From IMG/VR virus record IMGVR_UViG_2660238126_000001, positions 1 to 11,469 of that record: a DNA stretch of 11,469 nt; one strand, 5' to 3'. Below are positions 2,078-11,469 of this stretch, one piece after another. The stretch's first letter is position 1, and the number at the start of each line of letters is the position of its first letter. The notes under the pieces were generated by a model that was not told the origin of the DNA, did no database searches, and worked only from the letters and a program-made list of their open reading frames with translations. A program made the position numbers and the translations under genes. This DNA comes from a virus (taxonomy: Duplodnaviria; Heunggongvirae; Uroviricota; Caudoviricetes).

Positions 2078-2826
2078 TGTGCTCAACAGTGATCTCACAA
2101 CTAGGTTTCGAATGCCATCCAATAGGCAAGACCTTGAGAATTATCAGTCCATTCACTTACTGTGATGATGGAGAGCATGTCGGTGCCTTTATCCGTGAAG
2201 TCAATGGTAGGTATTTAGTTAGTGACAGATGCGATGCCTTAATGAATATGGAGGCAAGAGGGATCTCGCTTACCAAAAAACGACTTGATGAGATACGACA
2301 ATTACTGCTTAAAGAAGGCGCAGAACTCAATGCTCGAGGAGAAATCATTGCTTGGGCAACAGAAAAGGATGTCGGTGCGATTACATCGAACATAATTAGA
2401 GCTGGTATACTCGCATCAACTTTGTCGTTAGACTGGTATCAGCCAGTTCAAGCTGAAAAGTTTGAAAGTATGGTTATTGATTATCTATATCACACAGAGC
2501 TTAGAGAGGCACTTTCTCTTCGTGAAAACGTATATGGCTTGAGTGGACATCAAATTACCGTCCCTGTAACAATAAAAACCGACATACCTAAATACGTTTT
2601 TACATCAAGCGTGAAACACGGAGGAAGCTGGAATAGTGCTTACTCATTGCTTGGGAAACTAATTGATCTTAAAGCTTCAAGTGAGGAGTATAACAACAGA
2701 TTTGTTGTTATAGACAGCGAAGCAATTGGTGATCAAATGCAACAACTCTCCTTACTCTTCCATGAATCAAGCCAAGTTCTACCATTCTCCAAAAGAGAGA
2801 CTTGGATTAAGAGACTTGCAGCATAA
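2074..2826 (+). CDS. Hypothetical protein B (250 aa), second gene of the cassette in the rexB position; soluble, with an N-terminal Cys/His cluster
   Basis: ATG 2074 overlaps the TGA stop of gene A (aatATGAtg), indicating translational coupling. 753-nt ORF ending at TAA 2824..2826, immediately followed by an intrinsic terminator. No lambda counterpart recognised. Confidence 0.8.
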   Translation: MMCSTVISQLGFECHPIGKTLRIISPFTYCDDGEHVGAFIREVNGRYLVSDRCDALMNMEARGISLTKKRLDEIRQLLLKEGAELNARGEIIAWATEKDVGAITSNIIRAGILASTLSLDWYQPVQAEKFESMVIDYLYHTELREALSLRENVYGLSGHQITVPVTIKTDIPKYVFTSSVKHGGSWNSAYSLLGKLIDLKASSEEYNNRFVVIDSEAIGDQMQQLSLLFHESSQVLPFSKRETWIKRLAA

Positions 2827-2831
2827 TACAA

Positions 2832-2857
2832 CCCGGCCTCAGCGCCGGGTTTTCTTT
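2832..2857 (+). terminator. Intrinsic terminator (tImm-like) closing the PRM immunity transcript
   Basis: cccggc-ctcagc-gccggg hairpin followed by ttttcttt. Sequence from here rightward to OL resembles the lambda rexB-distal / tImm region as I recall it. Confidence 0.8.
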
Positions 2858-3014
2858 GCCTCACGATCGCCCCACCTAAAAACACATAACCAATTGTATT
2901 TATTGGAAAATAAATAGATACAACTCACTAAACAACGCAATTCTGATCTCTCCTTACATCGCCGAGGCAATACACTCACTCGAAAAAATAAATCCATATA
3001 AAAAACATACAGAT

Positions 3015-3077
3015 AACCATTTGCGGTGATAAAATATCTCTAGCGGTGTTGACACAAATACCACTAGCGGTGATACT
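3015..3077 (+). promoter_or_regulatory. Left operator region OL3 (3015..3031), OL2 (3035..3051), OL1 (3059..3075) with PL promoter (-35 ttgaca 3049..3054, -10 gatact 3072..3077)
   Basis: Sites aaccatttgcggtgata, tatctctagcggtgttg and taccactagcggtgata. ttgaca-17-gatact reads rightward into nutL and N. Confidence 0.9.
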
Positions 3078-3117
3078 TAGCTCGTCAGCAGGACGCACTA
3101 ACCACCATTGAAGGTGA

Positions 3118-3148
3118 GGCTCTTAAAAATTTAGCCCTGAAGAAGGGC
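3118..3148 (+). promoter_or_regulatory. nutL: nutL (boxA ggctcttaa and boxB gccctgaagaagggc)
   Basis: boxA-like 9-mer followed by a perfect boxB hairpin sequence, about 45 nt downstream of the PL -10. Confidence 0.85.
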
Positions 3149-3258
3149 AGCATTCAAAGCAGAAAGCTTTGAGTAGCGCGAAATGCAGCTGCAAGACAGC
3201 AACCGTGGGGATAAGCATCACGGCGCGTTACTCAAAGCTAACTGACAGGAGAATCCAG

Positions 3259-3582: not shown

Positions 3583-4137
3583 TTACTTAGATATTGGCCT
3601 TGGCTTTATCTCAATATTATATGGATCATAGCTGGCAACTAATTCAGTCCAGTAAATATCCTCAATAGGGAATAATATATGCTTCCCGTTCCATCGGGAA
3701 AAAGTTTTGTTCAACACACCAAGCTCAATCAACTCACTAATGTATGGGAATTGTTTTGATGTAACCACATACTTCCTGCCTTCATTAAGGGCTGCGCACA
3801 AAACCATAGATTGCTCTTCTGTAAGGTTTTGAATTACCGATCGCACTTTATCGTTTTGCATCTTAATGCGTTTTCTTAGCTTAAATCGCTTATATCTGGC
3901 GCTGGCAATAGCTGATAATCGATGCACATTAATTGCTAGCGAAAATGCAAGAGCAAAGACGAAAACATGCCACACATGAGGAATACCGATTCTCTCATTA
4001 ACATATTCAGGCCAGTTATCTGGGCTTAAAAGCAGAAGTCCAACCCAGATAACGATCATATACATGGTTCTCTCCAGAGGTTCATTACTGAACACTCGTC
4101 CGAGAATAACGAGTGGATCCATTTCTATACTCATCAA
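3583..4137 (-). CDS. sieB: Superinfection exclusion protein B (184 aa), membrane protein
   Basis: Translation MMSIEMDPLVILGRVFSNEPLERTMYMIVIWVGLLLLSPDNWPEY... matches lambda SieB from memory. It has hydrophobic N-terminal helices and is convergent with N. Confidence 0.92.
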   Translation of the reverse strand: MMSIEMDPLVILGRVFSNEPLERTMYMIVIWVGLLLLSPDNWPEYVNERIGIPHVWHVFVFALAFSLAINVHRLSAIASARYKRFKLRKRIKMQNDKVRSVIQNLTEEQSMVLCAALNEGRKYVVTSKQFPYISELIELGVLNKTFSRWNGKHILFPIEDIYWTELVASYDPYNIEIKPRPISK

Positions 4138-4261
4138 ACTGTAGGGGTTGTAATAGTTTATCCGATTTCTCGCTGTAGGGGTACACGAGAACCACCGAGC
4201 CTGATGTGGTTAAAAGACAGGCACAATCTTTACTACCGCAATCCACTATTTAAGGTGATAT

Positions 4262-4348
4262 ATGGAAGAAGAATTTGAAGAGTTCGAAGAGCATCCGCAG
4301 GATGTAATGGAACAGTACCAGGACTATCCGTATGACTACGACTATTGA
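4262..4348 (+). CDS. Small acidic ORF (28 aa, MEEEFEEFEEHPQDVMEQYQDYPYDYDY), lambda orf28-like
   Basis: ATG 4262 with upstream taaggtga; overlaps the ral start. Its position between sieB and ral matches lambda orf28 as recalled. Below the length cut-off of the ORF track. Confidence 0.5.
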   Translation: MEEEFEEFEEHPQDVMEQYQDYPYDYDY

Positions 4349-4511
4349 TAAGAATCAATGGTGTGGACAATTCAAGCGATGCAATGGATGCAAGCTGCAA
4401 TCGGAATGCATGGTTAAGCCTGAAGAAATGTTTCCTGTAATGGAAGATGGGAAATATGTCGATAAATGGGCAATACGAACGACGGCAATGATTGCCAGAG
4501 AACTTGGTTAA
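4332..4511 (+). CDS. ral: Restriction alleviation protein Ral, ending early at TAA (59 aa); the frame continues QNNKAA to TGA at 4530..4532
   Basis: Translation MTTTIDKNQWCGQFKRCNGCKLQSECMVKPEEMFPVMEDGKYVDKWAIRTTAMIARELG*. Lambda Ral is 66 aa as I recall, and 59 + 7 in-frame codons gives 66. Confidence 0.8.
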   Translation: MTTTIDKNQWCGQFKRCNGCKLQSECMVKPEEMFPVMEDGKYVDKWAIRTTAMIARELG

Positions 4512-4668
4512 CAGAACAACAAAGCTGCCTGATAGTGGCCTTTATTTTTGGCATAAATAACAGAATAAACACTGCACTGTGTATTCATTCCAACGAGTGA
4601 ATACACGGAGCAATGTCGCTCGTAACTAAACAGGAGCCGACTTGTTCTGATTATTGGAAATCTTCTTT

Positions 4669-4694
4669 GCCCTCCAGTGTGAGGGCGATTTTTT
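4669..4694 (+). terminator. Intrinsic terminator-like hairpin upstream of ea10 (tL-type, presumably read through under N antitermination)
   Basis: gccctc-cagtgt-gagggc stem-loop followed by gatttttta. Confidence 0.55.
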
Positions 4695-4714
4695 ATCTAT
4701 GAGGATATGAACAG

Positions 4715-5083
4715 ATGTCAAACATCAAAAAATACATCATTGATTACGACTGGAAAGCATCAATAGAAATTGAAATCGACCATGACGTAATGACAGAGGA
4801 AAAACTTCACCAGATTAATAATTTCTGGTCAGACTCTGAATACCGACTCAATAAACACGGCTCTGTATTAAATGCTGTATTAATCATGCTGGCGCAACAT
4901 GCTCTGCTTATAGCAATTTCAAGCGACTTAAATGCATATGGTGTTGTGTGTGAGTTCGACTGGAATGATGGAAATGGTCAGGAAGGATGGCCTCCAATGG
5001 ATGGTAGCGAAGGAATAAGAATTACCGATATCGATACATCAGGAATATTTGATTCAGATGATATGACTATCAAAGCCGCCTGA
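4715..5083 (+). CDS. ea10: Ea10 protein (122 aa)
   Basis: Translation MSNIKKYIIDYDWKASIEIEIDHDV...DSDDMTIKAA, in the lambda ea10 position between ral and cIII. Confidence 0.85.
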   Translation: MSNIKKYIIDYDWKASIEIEIDHDVMTEEKLHQINNFWSDSEYRLNKHGSVLNAVLIMLAQHALLIAISSDLNAYGVVCEFDWNDGNGQEGWPPMDGSEGIRITDIDTSGIFDSDDMTIKAA

Positions 5084-5155
5084 GCGCGGCGTTACCGCAT
5101 ACCAATAACGCTTCACTCGAGGCGTTTTTCGTTATGTATAAATAAGGAGCACACC

Positions 5156-5320
5156 ATGCAATATGCCATTGCAGGGTGGCCTGTTGCTGGCTGCCCTTCC
5201 GAATCTTTACTTGAACGAATCACCCGTAAATTACGTGACGGATGGAAACGCCTTATCGACATACTTAATCAGCCAGGAGTCCCAAAAAATGGATCAAACA
5301 CTTATGGCTATCCAGACTAA
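5156..5320 (+). CDS. cIII: CIII (54 aa), FtsH inhibitor that stabilises CII
   Basis: Translation [54 protein letters not shown] with RBS aaggag upstream. The track ORF 5163..5432 is a different frame. Confidence 0.9.
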   Translation: MQYAIAGWPVAGCPSESLLERITRKLRDGWKRLIDILNQPGVPKNGSNTYGYPD

Positions 5321-5432
5321 ATTCACTATCGCCACTTTTATTGGCGATGAAAAGATGTTTCGTGAGGCCGTCGACGCTTATAAAAAATGGATATTAATAC
5401 TGAAACTGAGATCAAGCAAAAGCATTCACTAA
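5289..5432 (+). CDS. kil: Kil (47 aa), host cell-division inhibitor
   Basis: Translation [47 protein letters not shown]. Overlaps the cIII 3' end and the gam 5' end as in lambda. Confidence 0.85.
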
Positions 5433-5803
5433 CCCCCTTTCCTGTTTTCCTAATCAGCCCGGCATTTCGCGGGCGATATTTTCACAGCTATTTCAGGAGT
5501 TCAGCCATGAACGCTTATTACATTCAGGATCGTCTTGAGGCTCAGAGCTGGACGCGTCACTACCAGCAGCTCGCCCGTGAAGAGAAAGAGGCAGAACTGG
5601 CAGACGACATGGAAAAAAGCCTGCCCCAGCACCTGTTTGAATCGCTATGCATCGATCATTTGCAACGCCACGGGGCCAGCAAAAAAGCCATTACCCGTGC
5701 GTTTGATGACGATGTTGAGTTTCAGGAGCGCATGGCAGAACACATCCGGTACATGGTTGAAACCATTGCTCACCACCAGGTTGATATTGATTCAGAGGTA
5801 TAA
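5387..5803 (+). CDS. gam: Gam (138 aa), RecBCD inhibitor
   Basis: Translation [22 protein letters not shown]... with internal Met ([15 protein letters not shown]...) corresponding to GamS, ending ...[10 protein letters not shown]. Confidence 0.95.
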
Positions 5804-5808
5804 AACGG

Positions 5809-6594
5809 ATGAGTACAGCACTCGCAACGCTGGCTGGGAAGCTGGCTGAACGTGTCGGCATGGATTCTGTCGACCCACAGGAACTGATCACCACTCTTCG
5901 CCAGACGGCATTTAAAGGTGATGCCAGCGATGCGCAGTTCATCGCATTGTTGATCGTCGCCAACCAGTACGGCCTTAATCCGTGGACGAAAGAAATTTAC
6001 GCCTTCCCTGACAAGCAGAACGGCATCGTTCCGGTGGTGGGCGTTGATGGCTGGTCCCGTATCATCAATGAAAACCAGCAGTTTGATGGCATGGACTTTG
6101 AGCAGGACAATGAATCATGTACATGCCGGATTTACCGCAAGGACCGTAATCATCCGATCTGCGTTACCGAGTGGATGGATGAATGCCGCCGCGAACCATT
6201 CAAAACCCGCGAAGGCAGAGAAATCACCGGACCGTGGCAGTCGCATCCCAAACGGATGTTACGGCATAAAGCCATGATTCAGTGTGCCCGTCTGGCCTTC
6301 GGATTTGCTGGTATCTATGACAAGGATGAAGCCGAGCGCATTGTCGAAAATACTGCATACACTGCAGAACGTCAGCCGGAACGCGACATCACTCCGGTTA
6401 ACGATGAAACCATGCAGGAGATTAACACTCTGCTGATCGCCCTGGATAAAACATGGGATGACGACTTATTGCCGCTCTGTTCCCAGATATTTCGCCGCGA
6501 CATTCGCGCATCGTCAGAACTGACACAGGCCGAAGCAGTGAAAGCTCTTGGATTCCTGAAACAGAAAGCCACTGAGCAGAAGGTGGCAGCATGA
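5809..6594 (+). CDS. bet: Bet / Red-beta single-strand annealing protein (261 aa)
   Basis: Translation [68 protein letters not shown]... matches lambda Bet from memory. Stop overlaps the exo start (ATGA). Confidence 0.97.
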
Positions 6595-7271
6595 CACCGG
6601 ACATTATCCTGCAGCGTGCCGGGATCGACGTGAGAGCTGTCGAACAGGGAGATGATGCGTGGCACAAATTACGGCTCGGCGTCATCACAGCTTCAGAAGT
6701 TCATAACGTAATAGCAAAACCCCGCTCCGGAAAAAAGTGGCCTGACATGAAAATGTCCTACTTCCACACCCTGCTGGCTGAGGTTTGCACCGGTGTGGCT
6801 CCGGAAGTTAATGCTAAGGCGCTGGCCTGGGGAAAACAGTACGAGAACGACGCCAGAGCCCTGTTTGAGTTTACTTCCGGCGTGAATGTTACTGAATCCC
6901 CGATCATCTATCGCGACGAAAGTATGCGCACCGCCTGCTCTCCCGATGGTTTATGCAGTGACGGCAACGGCCTTGAGCTGAAATGCCCGTTTACCTCCCG
7001 GGATTTCATGAAATTCCGGCTCGGTGGTTTCGAGGCCATAAAATCGGCTTACATGGCCCAGGTGCAGTACAGCATGTGGGTGACGCGAAAAGATGCCTGG
7101 TACTTTGCCAACTATGACCCACGAATGAAGCGTGAAGGCCTGCATTATGTCGTGGTTGAGCGGGATGAAAAGTACATGGCGAGTTTTGACGAGATGGTGC
7201 CGGAGTTCATCGAAAAAATGGACGAGGCACTGGCTGAAATTGGTTTTGTATTTGGGGAGCAATGGCGATGA
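6591..7271 (+). CDS. exo: Exo / Red-alpha 5'-3' exonuclease (226 aa)
   Basis: Translation [65 protein letters not shown]...EQWR matches lambda Exo from memory. Confidence 0.97.
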
Positions 7272-7450
7272 AGCATCCTCACGATAATATCCGGGTAGGC
7301 GCGATCACTTTCGTCTACTCCGTTACAAAGCGAGGCTGGGTATTTCCCGGCCTTTCTGTTATCAGAAATCCACTGATAGCACAGCGGCTGGCTGAGGAGA
7401 TAAATAATAAACGGGGGGCTGTATGCACAAAGCATCTCCTGTTGAGTTAA
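7262..7450 (+). CDS. Small ORF, lambda orf60a-like (62 aa from the first ATG; 60 aa if started at the second Met at 7268)
   Basis: Translation [31 protein letters not shown]...; overlaps the exo stop, in the orf60a position. Confidence 0.75.
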
Positions 7451-7614
7451 GAACGAGTATCGAGATGGCACATAGCCTCGCTCAAATTGGAGTCAGGTTT
7501 GTGCCAATACCAGTAGAAACAGACGAAGAATTTCACACGTTAGCCGCATCCCTTTCACAAAAGCTGGAAATGATGGTGGCGAAAGCAGAAGCAGATGAGA
7601 GAGACCAGGTATGA
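7423..7614 (+). CDS. Small ORF, lambda orf63-like (63 aa)
   Basis: Translation [63 protein letters not shown], in the orf63 position. Confidence 0.75.
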   Translation: MHKASPVELRTSIEMAHSLAQIGVRFVPIPVETDEEFHTLAASLSQKLEMMVAKAEADERDQV

Positions 7615-7690
7615 CAACCACTGAATGCATTTTTCTGGCAGCGGGCTTCATATTCTGTGTGCTTATGCTTGCCGACATGGGGCTTGTTCA

Positions 7691-7906
7691 ATGACACCTC
7701 AGCAAGAAAACGCCCTTCGCAGCATTGCCCGTCAGGCTAATTCTGAAATCAAAAAAGCCAGACAGCAGTTTCCGGATAAAAACGTCGATGACATTTGCCG
7801 TAGCGTACTAAAGAAGCACCGCGAAACGGTAACGCTGATGGGATTCACACCGACTCATTTAAGCCTGGCGATCGGCATGTTGAACGGCGTCTTTAAGGAA
7901 CGGTGA
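7691..7906 (+). CDS. Small ORF, lambda orf61-like (71 aa from ATG 7691)
   Basis: Translation MTPQQENALRSIARQANSEIKKARQQFPDKNVDDICRSVLKKHRETVTLMGFTPTHLSLAIGMLNGVFKER with gggg about 10 nt upstream. The track's 7625 start would read through a hydrophobic leader and is less likely. Confidence 0.65.
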   Translation: MTPQQENALRSIARQANSEIKKARQQFPDKNVDDICRSVLKKHRETVTLMGFTPTHLSLAIGMLNGVFKER

Positions 7907-7928
7907 ACATGAAAAGCAAAATCATCAG

Positions 7929-7949
7929 GGAGCTACAGGCTCCTTTTTT
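7929..7949 (+). terminator. Weak intrinsic terminator-like hairpin
   Basis: ggagc-tacag-gctcc followed by tttttt. Only a 5-bp stem. Confidence 0.4.
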
Positions 7950-8004
7950 ATTATTCGCATTCACCCTCAAGCGTATTAACCAACAATTCAGGGATTAATG
8001 AAAG

Positions 8005-8226
8005 ATGGCAGACATAATTGATTCAGCATCAGAAATTGAAGAATTACAGCGCAACACAGCAATAAAAATGCGCCGCCTGAACCACCAGGCTATATCTGCC
8101 ACTCATTGTTGTGAGTGTGGCGATCCGATAGATGAACGAAGACGACTGGCCGTTCAGGGTTGTCGGACTTGTGCAAGTTGCCAGGAGGATCTGGAACTTA
8201 TCAGTAAACAGAGAGGTTCGAAGTGA
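8005..8226 (+). CDS. DksA/TraR-family C4 zinc-finger protein (73 aa), lambda orf73-like
   Basis: CxxC...CxxC spacing in ...HCCECGDPIDERRRLAVQGCRTCASCQEDLE..., typical of TraR-type proteins. Length and position match lambda orf73 as I recall it. Confidence 0.8.
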   Translation: MADIIDSASEIEELQRNTAIKMRRLNHQAISATHCCECGDPIDERRRLAVQGCRTCASCQEDLELISKQRGSK

Positions 8227-8474
8227 GCGTAATTCACTCTCAGGCACTGCGTGAAGCGGCAGAGCAGGCAATGCATGACAACTGGGGATTTGACGCGGAC
8301 CTTTTCCATGAGCTGGTAACACCATCGATTGTGCTGACACTGCTGGATGAACGGGAAAGAAACCAGCAGTACATCAAACGCCGCGACCAGGAGAACGAGG
8401 ATATTGCGCTAACGGTGAGGAAACTGCGTGTTGAGCTGGAGACAGCAAAAATCAAAACTCAACGAGCAGCGTGA
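8223..8474 (+). CDS. Hypothetical coiled-coil-like protein (83 aa) in the ea22 position, terminated by TGA with a further open in-frame stretch downstream
   Basis: ATG (GTG?) at 8223 overlaps the orf73 stop. The translation is charged and helical-looking (...ERERNQQYIKRRDQENEDIALTVRKLRVELETAKIKTQRAA). I cannot confirm homology to Ea22. Confidence 0.55.
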   Translation: MSVIHSQALREAAEQAMHDNWGFDADLFHELVTPSIVLTLLDERERNQQYIKRRDQENEDIALTVRKLRVELETAKIKTQRAA

Positions 8475-8772
8475 GTAGAAGGTGTTATCTCGGATGGAAG
8501 TAAGCGTATTGCTGAACTGGAGGCCTGGGTTGAATACACAAGAGCTGCATACGTAAGAGCAAAAGACAAGGGAGATTTGATCAGAGTTATTACCCGACAA
8601 CCAACGGGATTTTACGCTTACGTACCATGTAATTAGGAATCCTTGAAGTGGCAGCCTAACTGCGGATACACTGAAATGGCGATTTGGTAACATGTTTCGC
8701 ACAAGGCTGTTACTACGCTTAAAGATAATCAGCCATGATTAAACGCTTTGTAAAAAGTAAAAGGAAATTACA

Positions 8773-9387
8773 ATGAAAAAATCAATACTAATTTTAGGGC
8801 TTACGTTAATTGTCTCATCTCAAATACCATCGGCAATGGCAAAAAATGAATCAAGACTTTGGGTTGTTGTTGATCGAACGGAAAGACATACCTGCCCTTC
8901 AAGTAAATGTGGAGTGGCTGGGAAACTATTTTTCAGGGAAGGCGTAGATTTTCTAGAAAAAAAAGGTGAATGGGTTCGTATAACTGAGCCATATTCAGCC
9001 TCATGTGTGGGAGGGGAAAGCGAATATATTAAAGAAGGTAATAAATCCTGCACAAGAAAAAACGGAATCGTCAATGGCAAGTTTTCAGAATGGGTTAAAC
9101 TTAGTGATCTTAGCAGTGAAAGGCCATCAGATCCTGCTGAAAATGCGAGCGGAGATGATACTTTAATCAAAGGATCTGATGACTACCGTATATACAAAAA
9201 AGAGTTTTCTTCGGCAGCTAGGAAGTTAATAAACGAAGGGGTCTGCACGGAAAGCGACTTTAAGGAAATCGGAGGGTGGATGGCATCAAGCAATAAGGGG
9301 AAAAACATCTATTTCACATATTGCGGAGGAATGACGTTGTCGAACAGAATATACCTAGACGTTAAAAGTGGAAAGACTTTTAGATAA
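8773..9387 (+). CDS. Secreted/periplasmic protein (204 aa) with a Sec signal peptide and an SH3b-like N-terminal region; AT-rich moron
   Basis: Signal peptide MKKSILILGLTLIVSSQIPSAMA followed by KNE. SH3b-like pattern in RLWVVVDRTERHTCPSSKCGVAGKLFFREGVDFLEKKGEWVRITEP. Seven Cys in the mature part. RBS aaggaaa precedes the ATG. Not part of lambda. Confidence 0.75.
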   Translation: MKKSILILGLTLIVSSQIPSAMAKNESRLWVVVDRTERHTCPSSKCGVAGKLFFREGVDFLEKKGEWVRITEPYSASCVGGESEYIKEGNKSCTRKNGIVNGKFSEWVKLSDLSSERPSDPAENASGDDTLIKGSDDYRIYKKEFSSAARKLINEGVCTESDFKEIGGWMASSNKGKNIYFTYCGGMTLSNRIYLDVKSGKTFR

Positions 9388-9458
9388 TATGATATTACCA
9401 ATGACAGTATTAATTTAATGCCTCCATAGAATTATCTCTAGGAAGTATGTATAAGAAA

Positions 9459-9492
9459 AGCCCGCACAATGAGCTGCTGCGGGCTTTGTGTT
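9459..9492 (+). terminator. Intrinsic terminator after the secreted-protein gene
   Basis: agcccgca-caatgagctgc-tgcgggct hairpin followed by ttgtgttatt. Confidence 0.6.
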
Positions 9493-9740
9493 ATTCGCCA
9501 TATTTTATGAAGCAAATACGACACTATAGATAATTAAGCGTTGCTGGTTGTCGATTCCTCACTCACTCCTGTTGATGGCTCTCTTCTTGTATGTGCCATT
9601 GAAGGGTAATATCGAGTAAAAAGATACCGGAAGTATCCGCGCCGCCATGATTGTCTTTCTCCTAATGCAGGAAAAGCAGAATGGCTAAATCATCAGCAGA
9701 GCGCAAAGTCGATCAGAGAGCCAAGCAAGCATCATCCGGT

Positions 9741-10019
9741 ATGCGTAAGCTGGAGCTTGTACTTGATGCTCAGGAAATTGAAATGCTGGATCGTAACTGA
9801 GCCACGCGCCGCTTCAGGCATGCGCCTTACGAGTTTGGTGAGTACATCGCGTTACTGAGCCGCCAGGATGATGCACGTGTGCGCTGGCGTATAAAATCGA
9901 TCAGCAGAAAACGTTGCGATAAGTGCGGCGAGAGAGTTCCTGTTAATTCATGCCCGTGTAATGGTGACTCACAATGCTGGGTGACCAAAGGCTGGCACGA
10001 AACAAAATTAATGATATAA
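9741..10019 (+). pseudogene. ea8.5: Ea8.5-like homeodomain/zinc-ribbon protein interrupted by an in-frame TGA at 9798..9800
   Basis: The frame reads MRKLELVLDAQEIEMLDRN*ATRRFRHAPYEFGEYIALLSRQDDARVRWRIKSISRKRCDKCGERVPVNSCPCNGDSQCWVTKGWHETKLMI*. The 72-codon segment after the TGA has no in-frame ATG and carries the Cys cluster. Total length (92 codons) and position match lambda Ea8.5. Confidence 0.5.
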
Positions 10020-10025
10020 ATCTCT

Positions 10026-10037
10026 GTGACATGTCAC
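10026..10037. promoter_or_regulatory. Perfect 12-bp palindrome gtgacatgtcac immediately 5' of the RBS of the 142-aa ORF
   Basis: Exact inverted repeat, followed by ggagg (10038..10042) and ATG 10048. Candidate operator or RNA hairpin. Confidence 0.4.
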
Positions 10038-10047
10038 GGAGGCGGCA

Positions 10048-10476
10048 ATGAAATTAGACCAGCAATATCTAAAAGATCTACTTATCGCATTCGAAAAAAC
10101 TCATGGCCCTGACACGATGCTTAGTGAACTAGAGGATAATGGCTTTAATAGATATGACCAAAATTTTATTTTCCATATGCGATTATTATGCGACTACGAA
10201 TTAATAGTCAGGGTTGATGGAAAACCTGGGTTCGGTCATATAATGTCCAACGAGTTAGGGGAAGGTGTTGGATATAGTTGGATCGAAGTACCACTGAGGT
10301 TGACAGCAAGAGGGCATGATTTTATTGCTGACTTGCGTCAAAAGGAGGTCTGGCAAACTATAAAAACAAACTTTAAGGATGAGGGAATTAGTACACTAAT
10401 AAGTGTTTCAAAATCACTAGCAAAAGGCTTTGCAAGGAAAAAGATAAAAGATATTACAGGAATAGATATTGAATAA
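10048..10476 (+). CDS. Hypothetical cytoplasmic protein (142 aa); AT-rich moron inserted between the ea8.5 and orf55 homologues
   Basis: Strong RBS ggagg 5 nt upstream of the ATG. Translation MKLDQQYLKDLLIAFEKTHGPDTMLSELEDNGFNRYDQNFIFHMRLLCDYELIVRVDG.... Lambda has only a short spacer here as I recall. Confidence 0.8.
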   Translation: MKLDQQYLKDLLIAFEKTHGPDTMLSELEDNGFNRYDQNFIFHMRLLCDYELIVRVDGKPGFGHIMSNELGEGVGYSWIEVPLRLTARGHDFIADLRQKEVWQTIKTNFKDEGISTLISVSKSLAKGFARKKIKDITGIDIE

Positions 10477-10558
10477 TTCTTAGCATCAGCAACTACTGCC
10501 TTTGGTGGAAATTATATCTGAACTCGCTACGGCGAGTTTTGTTTTATGGAGATGATAA

Positions 10559-10726
10559 ATGCACTTCCGAGTCACAGGTGAATGGAATGGAGAACCATTC
10601 AACAGAGTTATCGAAGCAGAGAACATCAATGACTGCTATGACCACTGGATGATATGGGCCCAGATAGCACATGCAGACATAACCAATATTCGAATTGAAG
10701 AACTGAAAGAACACCAAGCCGCCTGA
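10559..10726 (+). CDS. Small ORF, lambda orf55-like (55 aa)
   Basis: Translation MHFRVTGEWNGEPFNRVIEAENINDCYDHWMIWAQIAHADITNIRIEELKEHQAA*, in the position between ea8.5 and xis. Below the length cut-off of the ORF track. Confidence 0.65.
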   Translation: MHFRVTGEWNGEPFNRVIEAENINDCYDHWMIWAQIAHADITNIRIEELKEHQAA

Positions 10727-10738
10727 TGGCGGTTTTTT
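10718..10738 (+). terminator. Intrinsic terminator overlapping the orf55 stop
   Basis: gccgcc-tgat-ggcgg hairpin followed by tttttt. Confidence 0.6.
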
Positions 10739-10765
10739 CTTGCGTGTAATTGCGGAGACTTTGCG

Positions 10766-10984
10766 ATGTACTTGACACTTCAGGAGTGGAACGCTCGCCA
10801 GCGACGCCCAAGAAGCCTTGAAACAGTTCGTCGATGGGTGCGCGAATGCAGGATATTCCCTCCTCCGGTTAAGGATGGAAGAGAATATCTGTTCCACGAA
10901 TCAGCGGTAAAGGTTGACTTAAATCGACCAGTAACAGGTAGCCTTTTGAAGAGGATCAGAAATGGGAAGAAGGCGAAGTCATGA
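10766..10984 (+). CDS. xis: Excisionase Xis (72 aa)
   Basis: Translation MYLTLQEWNARQRRPRSLETVRRWVRECRIFPPPVKDGREYLFHESAVKVDLNRPVTGSLLKRIRNGKKAKS matches lambda Xis from memory. Confidence 0.96.
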   Translation: MYLTLQEWNARQRRPRSLETVRRWVRECRIFPPPVKDGREYLFHESAVKVDLNRPVTGSLLKRIRNGKKAKS

Positions 10985-11175
10985 GCGCCGGGATTTACCC
11001 CCTAACCTTTATATAAGAAACAATGGATATTACTGCTACAGGGACCCAAGGACGGGTAAAGAGTTTGGATTAGGCCGAGACAGGCGAATCGCAATCACTG
11101 AAGCTATACAGGCCAACATTGAGTTATTTTCAGGACACAAACACAAGCCTCTGACAGCGAGNNNCANNAGNGNTN
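10962..11175 (+). pseudogene. int: Integrase Int, N-terminal arm-binding region only (about 71 codons); lambda-like sequence stops after a patch of ambiguous bases
   Basis: Translation MGRRRSHERRDLPPNLYIRNNGYYCYRDPRTGKEFGLGRDRRIAITEAIQANIELFSGHKHKPLTA matches lambda Int from memory and overlaps the xis 3' end. The defined bases within 11161..11175 are consistent with int, but from 11176 the sequence no longer encodes Int and stops at 11211..11213. Confidence 0.8.
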
Positions 11176-11469
11176 ATGTACGAGCTAAATGTTACTCCGT
11201 TAAAATAAATTAGTAACAAACGCCCTATAACGTACTGAAAATTATGCCTGTGATCTAGCGCCAAAAATCAGTATTTCGGCGTGAACTCGCAAAATATTAA
11301 CGATTCAGCCGTGATAGTGGGATAAACACCTTAGAACGCCGGATAAAGACTGATAATTGTCTTCGACGGTCGGGTAAAACGAGACATCGCCCCGGCACGA
11401 ATCACTACTTAACACGGATGGCTTCAGCCCCCGTTTTCACACGAAGGTCGATGCGGCGACCAAATCGTT

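Follow-up and report, generated by a model that had tools for sequence, protein, structure and literature searches.

The replaced block and its main gene

Read on the + strand, the window, meaning the whole stretch of 11,469 nucleotides that was analysed, corresponds to the early-left (PL) arm of a lambda-like prophage. Its gene order is cro (- strand), cI, N, sieB (- strand), gam, bet, exo, orf60a/63/61, the TraR-like orf73 and a truncated ea22, followed by xis and int. We aligned the window with the lambda genome (NC_001416) by blastn. Homology is present only at 4901-8521 and 10511-11161, and the DNA in the gap is non-lambda (Table 1). The initial annotation had proposed an accessory "moron" insertion in the exo-xis region, and the alignment agrees: homology to lambda stops at 8521 and resumes at 10511.

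The block of about 2 kb takes the place of about 760 bp of lambda DNA, so that ea8.5 is missing entirely and ea22 lacks its 3' part. Three further elements share the block with its main gene: a fragment of a humD-like pseudogene, a DUF2513 gene, and a Cys-rich ORF interrupted by an internal stop. In the RefSeq annotation, ea22 is frameshifted and incomplete, and the humD-like fragment appears as an incomplete "DNA repair protein". The Cys-rich ORF is intact in plasmid copies (WP_001129736.1). The main gene had been placed between the ea22 slot and an Ea8.5-like ORF. The first neighbour is indeed there, as the truncated ea22. However, the second is not an Ea8.5 relative: lambda Ea8.5 has no homologue in the window (tblastn, best E 2.1), and the Cys-rich ORF shows no similarity to it.

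Across 35 E. coli-type IMG/VR contigs, the identity of the block is 96-100%. Deletions among the IMG/VR copies are confined to the pseudogene zone, 9652-9858. The segment 8401-10600 is also found in lambdoid prophages of IMG/VR (six named contigs). Since their integrases are only about 75% identical to lambda Int, the block is probably common to lambdoid phages with different attachment sites. In the window itself, undetermined bases at about 11160-11180 break the int reading frame (XXXXXX in the translations), near the point where lambda homology ends (11161).

In the slot between cI and PL, lambda has rexA and rexB; the window has two different, AT-rich genes there (1520-2077 and 2074-2826, + strand). 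Among the candidate defence systems of PADLOC, their match is PDC-M24, weak for component A (E 4.8e-4) and at E 5.8e-10 for component B. Their Pfam assignments are DUF6978 (under its cut-off) and DUF1828.

Table 1. Coordinates of the features in and around the non-lambda block (window numbering).
Feature	Position	Strand	Remarks
Truncated ea22	8223..8525	+	N-terminal 102 residues match lambda Ea22 at 84%; reading frame ends at 8474
Non-lambda mosaic block	8522..10510	+	GC 41.0%; blastn against lambda NC_001416
Upstream leader, 142 nt	8631..8772	+	Travels with the CDS; aligned to the E. fergusonii phage-plasmid
Candidate sigma-70 promoter, TTGAAG-18-TACACT	8643..8672	+	PWM 10.6, third best on the + strand; weak
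Shine-Dalgarno, AAGGA	8761..8765	+	7 nt 5' of ATG; sequence inspection
CDS, 204 aa + stop	8773..9387	+	WP_000748284.1 / phrog_8310, hypothetical
Sec type I signal peptide (predicted)	8773..8841	+	Residues 1-23; cleavage between AMA and K; read from the sequence
SH3b domain	8851..9102	+	Residues ~27-110; insertion at residues ~70-100 with C78 and C93
C-terminal domain (CTD)	9118..9384	+	Residues 116-204, ~85 residues; two short helical turns, then helix-helix-three strands
G+C-rich hairpin, intrinsic-terminator-like	9460..9495	both	Stem 9460-9484 (GCCCGCA...TGCGGGC); flanked by an A run and a T-rich run
humD/umuD'-like pseudogene fragment	9538..9648	+	Residues 46-82 of 130; in-frame TAA 9607-9609; tblastn 75.7% identity, E 1.5e-8
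Cys-rich ORF, 112 codons	9681-10019	+	C-terminal CxxC...CPC...C; internal TGA 9798-9800 in the window
DUF2513 gene	10048-10476	+	Inside the replaced block

The main gene is AT-rich, as had been noted, with a GC content of 39.2% against 49.2% in the lambda-homologous DNA at 4901-8521. It is also foreign to lambda, as the initial annotation had stated. Blastn found no homology with NC_001416 across 8522-10510. Likewise, a comparison with the lambda core and exo-xis genes (ea22, ea8.5, orf60a/61/63/73; blastn, and tblastn of Ea22 and Ea8.5) gave no match for the ORF, the sole match being the truncated ea22 upstream. The ribosome-binding site described for the gene is present as a Shine-Dalgarno sequence.

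At E <= 1e-3 we found 82 homologues, in E. coli, E. fergusonii, Pseudomonas, Aeromonas and metagenomes, and nearly all have about 204 amino acids. The dN/dS value against the E. fergusonii copy is 0.085 (dS 0.71), and the reading frame is intact in 33 of the 35 E. coli-type IMG/VR copies. For these three reasons the ORF is more than a product of chance; on sequence grounds, it is a real gene under purifying selection. The other two copies are frameshifted exactly at a run of eight adenines (8957-8964, codons 62-64), a run also present in the E. fergusonii copy. These frameshifts could be sequencing errors or the result of slipped-strand switching.

Of 5426 complete E. coli genomes, 129 contain the 1-kb region with the gene at a coverage of at least 80%. 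The carriers come from humans, poultry, cattle and wild animals. At the E. coli locus inspected (FORC_081), the same DNA is annotated as a prophage adjoining ybhC, at the lambda attachment site. Among 50,697 phage records, one carries the region or the gene, that of phage Chlobot.

RefSeq holds an identical protein (WP_000748284.1), and the match with phrog_8310 is full length (E 3.6e-136). Both entries belong to the same protein family as the query and carry no function. All source names of the relatives are "hypothetical" or "exported hypothetical protein". Databases already list the sequence, as a hypothetical protein. Literature searches on WP_000748284, phrog_8310 and Chlobot found no paper on it, and a search on SH3b, periplasmic, prophage and exclusion found nothing relevant.

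Export signal, SH3b fold and C-terminal domain

The protein is predicted to be exported through a Sec-type signal peptide. Its N-terminus, MKKSILILGLTLIVSSQIPSAMA followed by KNE, has two lysines, a hydrophobic core of 13 residues, proline at -5 and alanine at -3 and -1. By inspection, it divides into MKK, SILILGLTLIVSS and QIPSAMA before the lysine, which fits a Sec type I signal in the n-region, the h-region and the -3/-1 positions. The predicted cleavage site with an AxA motif, given in the initial annotation, corresponds to this AMA. Of 55 full-length homologues, 54 have an N-terminal signal peptide, a lipobox or a membrane anchor. The profile libraries also gave a sub-threshold match to the lipoprotein signal LPAM_1. 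The mature protein would have about 180 residues. We counted six cysteines (C41, C46, C78, C93, C158 and C184), an even number, where seven had been claimed.

The N-terminal domain has the SH3b fold. In the AlphaFold2 model, built with 33 sequences, the pLDDT is 90.3 and this domain forms an SH3-like beta-barrel. An SH3b-like segment had been proposed, and the fold bears it out. Nevertheless, the SH3_3 family of Pfam (PF08239) scores the query at 16.1 bits, under the gathering cut-off of 27, while two homologues (P0132 and P0096) are above the Pfam threshold. Compared with known SH3b wall-binding domains (SH3_3; lysostaphin, Psm of phiSM101, the N-terminal SH3b of NlpC/P60 proteins), the query lacks a hydrolase domain. 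It also differs from them in its score and in an insertion of about 30 residues with a predicted disulfide. The two most distant homologues have neither this insertion nor C41 and C46. A scan of NCBIfam gave no match for the protein, and PADLOC-DB v2 gave 0 families at E <= 10.

The C-terminal domain carries the motifs SDD, GGW.KS, YFTYCGG and NRIYLD, and its C158 and C184 are invariant. The profile and structure searches suggested earlier were run. They returned phrog_8310, the sub-threshold SH3_3 and the SH3b fold, but no Pfam, PDB or BFVD match for the C-terminal domain. Pfam searches with 27 sequences of the domain produced only scattered single-member noise, no fold match was found in the PDB, and Foldseek against BFVD gave nothing at E <= 0.001. 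Sequence matches in the PDB, obtained with both the domain and the full-length profiles, were de novo designed TIM barrels; we rejected them as spurious, a sum of four weak helix matches. No His or Cys-His motif that looks catalytic occurs in the domain, and it does not resemble hydrolase folds. Likewise, it shows no similarity in sequence or fold to the known periplasmic inhibitors of lysozymes and lysins (Ivy, MliC/PliC, PliI, PliG, LprI, T4 Sp).

A profile of the domain retrieved 531 clusters at E <= 1e-3 among 1.84 billion representatives. It is almost always at the extreme C-terminus. Six architectures were seen: signal peptide-SH3b-CTD, which is that of the query; lipobox-SH3b-CTD; zinc ribbon-predicted membrane helix-SH3b-CTD; signal peptide-ankyrin repeats-SH3b-CTD; signal peptide-CTD alone, of about 100 aa; and tandem CTD. 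In every architecture checked, the domain follows a signal peptide, a lipobox or a membrane anchor and is predicted to be extracytoplasmic.

From Enterobacteria to Alphaproteobacteria, Acidobacteriota and Vampirovibrionales, the motifs hardly vary. Metagenomes and environmental Proteobacteria (Rhodobacterales, Rhizobiales, marine Vibrio, Pseudomonas) account for most members of the family. In Vibrio, they occupy syntenic chromosomal positions, which suits a housekeeping role in the envelope as well as a defensive one.

This distribution bears on the virulence role raised in the initial annotation, in which the protein would be a host-interaction factor like Bor or Lom, acting in adhesion or in resistance to serum or innate immunity. 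An exported prophage moron in E. coli of humans, poultry, cattle and wild animals is what one would expect of such a factor. However, the family is mostly environmental, and beyond Sec the protein has no outer-membrane or secretion signal. We regard a virulence role as highly improbable.

Genomic contexts and expression

The gene is found on several kinds of mobile elements. The E. fergusonii copy, 89% identical, is in a P1/P7-like phage-plasmid, directly after hot and humD. There, humD is intact, preceded by a LexA box (3681-4073) and immediately upstream of the homologue. The DNA homology extends over window positions 8631-9389, which correspond to 4090-4848 of the phage-plasmid at 84.9%; it covers the 142-nt leader and the CDS, not the terminator. 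Because a humD-like fragment is kept in the window and an intact humD stands beside the E. fergusonii homologue, the sequences point to a P1-like donor with later rearrangement. These humD traces show exchange between lambda-like phages and P1-like phage-plasmids. On the same phage-plasmid, a gene of the Tad2-like (anti-Thoeris) family and a dUTPase gene (5763-6949, - strand) are convergent to the homologue. The pair starts about 900 bp downstream of it, with one 266-aa gene in between.

In an Aeromonas prophage, the homologue lies between a Q-like antiterminator and the holin. In six Pseudomonas loci, an integrase gene immediately precedes it, and these integrases share only 40-78% identity. 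In a ColE1-type Citrobacter plasmid of 5.3 kb, it is the only evident cargo, 3' of a TTGACA-17-TACTAT site. Large IncA/IncF plasmids were considered as independent contexts and rejected, for what they carry is this lambda exo-xis fragment again, picked up between IS elements.

All-against-all clustering of the ORFs in 77 genome loci found no neighbour conserved across genera. The gene therefore behaves as single-gene cargo and, as far as its neighbourhoods indicate, would act alone. DUF2513 adjoins it in just two places, the E. coli block and a single Marinobacter locus. At the latter, in Marinobacter litoralis, a relative consisting of the C-terminal domain only is followed at once by the DUF2513 gene (6401-6763), in a region resembling a defence island with PIN, NERD and MqsA-like genes. 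The adjacency to DUF2513 could be due to chance or reflect a weak functional link.

The lack of a constant partner weighs on one alternative, an orphan immunity protein. The C-terminal domain would neutralise a single class of toxin acting in the periplasm (a T6SS amidase or muramidase effector, or a bacteriocin that targets the wall), and the gene would have spread as stand-alone immunity. The small size of the protein, its export or lipoprotein anchor and its place on mobile elements fit this idea, and about 100 aa for the stand-alone domain is a typical size for immunity proteins. However, no effector-like gene is conserved alongside it in the 77 loci. Immunity proteins tend to co-evolve rapidly with their toxins, and strong conservation across phyla is unusual for them. 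We consider this explanation unlikely.

In the window, the gene is in the sense orientation of the PL operon. Genes of this operon are expressed after induction or infection by N-antiterminated transcription. From its orientation, the gene would therefore be expressed in this way after induction or infection. Expression in a repressed lysogen would need the weak candidate promoter in the leader. This was found with a custom-made PWM, which ranks PL and PR first on their strands. Its score is lower than the 95th percentile of shuffles (11.8), and the controls PL and PRM score 12.4 and 9.9. A consensus scan called no sigma-70 site on the + strand, this candidate included. Both hexamers are identical in E. 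fergusonii and the spacer differs, which is suggestive only. The leader is also predicted to form a long hairpin at about 8647-8714 (dG -35.2 kcal/mol over 160 nt, z -2.65), which overlaps the candidate promoter. Most of the changes against E. fergusonii are wobble-compatible, with no clear covariation. Rfam yielded a single hit, Thr_leader, which at 21 bits is under its gathering score of 55.

Some strains, E. coli ATCC 8739 among them, carry an IS1 in the leader, about 60 nt before the ATG (about 8707-8715). The blastn break at 8706/8716 fits a 9-bp target duplication. PL and the candidate promoter are on the far side of this IS1, away from the gene.

Downstream, the gene had been described as having its own hairpin terminator. 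The hairpin itself is plausible. On the + strand, its stem is followed by TTTGTGTTATT up to 9495, with an RNA dG of -18.8 kcal/mol (z -2.3). However, the - strand version folds about equally well (-17.5 kcal/mol, z -2.8) and has the better T run, and the consensus scan called only this version. The hairpin therefore looks bidirectional, and a bidirectional intrinsic terminator is plausible from its structure. It is not homologous to the terminator that follows the E. fergusonii copy.

The three phage contexts (in the PL operon, downstream of Q, and after the LexA-controlled humD) could mean expression in lytic growth only. All three are active on induction. Accordingly, we weighed an accessory factor of the phage's own lytic cycle, expressed from PL, PR' or SOS-controlled promoters. 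It would bind peptidoglycan and modulate wall turnover or the timing of lysis, or it would be a small wall-active enzyme. In the prophage L138, the homologue lies just after the endolysin and spanin genes and before the terminase, and SH3b domains are typical of endolysins. Nevertheless, the gene is also carried by the non-phage ColE1-type plasmid, by integrase islands and by chromosomes without lysis genes. The C-terminal domain, of about 85 residues, offers no recognisable catalytic residues or hydrolase-like fold, and lambda lyses normally without the gene. A lytic accessory is, in our opinion, very unlikely.

Proposed role in the envelope

The gene is a genuine, well-delimited moron, and, as judged from its sequence, its predicted exported product combines an SH3b domain with a C-terminal domain that matches no Pfam family and no solved fold. 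It resembles the lambdoid morons Bor, Lom and Cor and an LprI-family protein of phage ev099. Like these, it is an additional gene set between conserved ones, deviates in composition, and has an exported product and a hairpin 3' of it. However, it has no relationship with them in sequence or fold. In ev099, the ea22-xis slot (2503-3201) encodes an exported protein of the LprI family, which is a family of lysozyme inhibitors, with a signal peptide and a hairpin 3' of the gene.

The position of the gene is typical of lysogenic-conversion genes. This, together with an exported product encoded by a prophage and the lipoproteins among its relatives, would agree with superinfection exclusion at the level of the receptor or of injection, as for Cor or Llp. 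The protein would then bind the periplasmic face of an outer-membrane receptor, or a component of an inner-membrane channel, and block the entry of DNA from particular phages. However, known exclusion proteins of the receptor level have a narrow distribution. The motifs studied here are nearly invariant across distant phyla, and the gene is also on plasmids, islands and chromosomes, which argues for a universal target and not a strain-specific receptor. The scan of PADLOC gave no match either, and the protein shows no fold similarity to known exclusion proteins. Exclusion of this type appears quite unlikely to us. Superinfection exclusion and envelope modification were, beside virulence, the roles that the initial annotation had put forward as conjectures.

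The explanation that we prefer is a mobile single-gene cassette in a lambda-like prophage, whose exported protein with SH3b and C-terminal domains gives protection at the level of the envelope. We hold it tentatively, at slightly less than an even chance. The cassette of leader and CDS (about 760 bp) would have recombined into the dispensable exo-xis region of the prophage. After export, up to three disulfides would form. The SH3b domain may tether the protein to peptidoglycan or to another conserved polymer of the envelope, as its fold suggests. The C-terminal domain, which in some relatives makes up the whole mature protein, would be a non-enzymatic module that binds a broadly conserved periplasmic target. 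We favour a module of this kind over a strain-specific receptor blocker because the domain is small, has no catalytic-looking residues, occurs in stand-alone secreted forms and keeps its motifs nearly invariant across phyla.

The outcome for the carrier cell would be a benefit at the level of the envelope. The likeliest one is protection of the wall against incoming muralytic activity, such as phage tail lysins, wall-degrading effectors of T6SS or bacteriocins, or lysozyme. With modest confidence, we favour an envelope-protective role of this kind, for example, one that blocks incoming wall-degrading enzymes. The LprI-family protein in the corresponding slot of ev099 speaks for it by analogy. 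T4 Spackle (Sp), Ivy, MliC/PliC, PliI and PliG are small Sec-exported periplasmic proteins, as the query is predicted to be. The likeness proposed with these lysozyme inhibitors is a functional analogy and not family membership, because the C-terminal domain has no similarity to any known inhibitor.

A broader proposal concerns the whole family. The C-terminal domain might define an undescribed family of binding or inhibitor modules, widespread and periplasmic, which SH3b domains would tether to the wall and which would neutralise a conserved class of wall-degrading enzymes. It would be a one-gene "wall armour", traded by phages, phage-plasmids, islands and small plasmids against superinfecting phages, T6SS or lysozyme. 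We regard this proposal as doubtful.

The protein is a small, well-folded and experimentally tractable target. With the LprI-family protein of ev099, it makes two cases in which the ea22-xis slot of lambdoid phages encodes an exported protein. Its C-terminal domain represents a family of more than 500 clusters that match no Pfam family and no solved fold. If the inferred role is true, the gene would be a one-gene module of envelope protection carried by many kinds of mobile elements across Proteobacteria, and this family would acquire a function.
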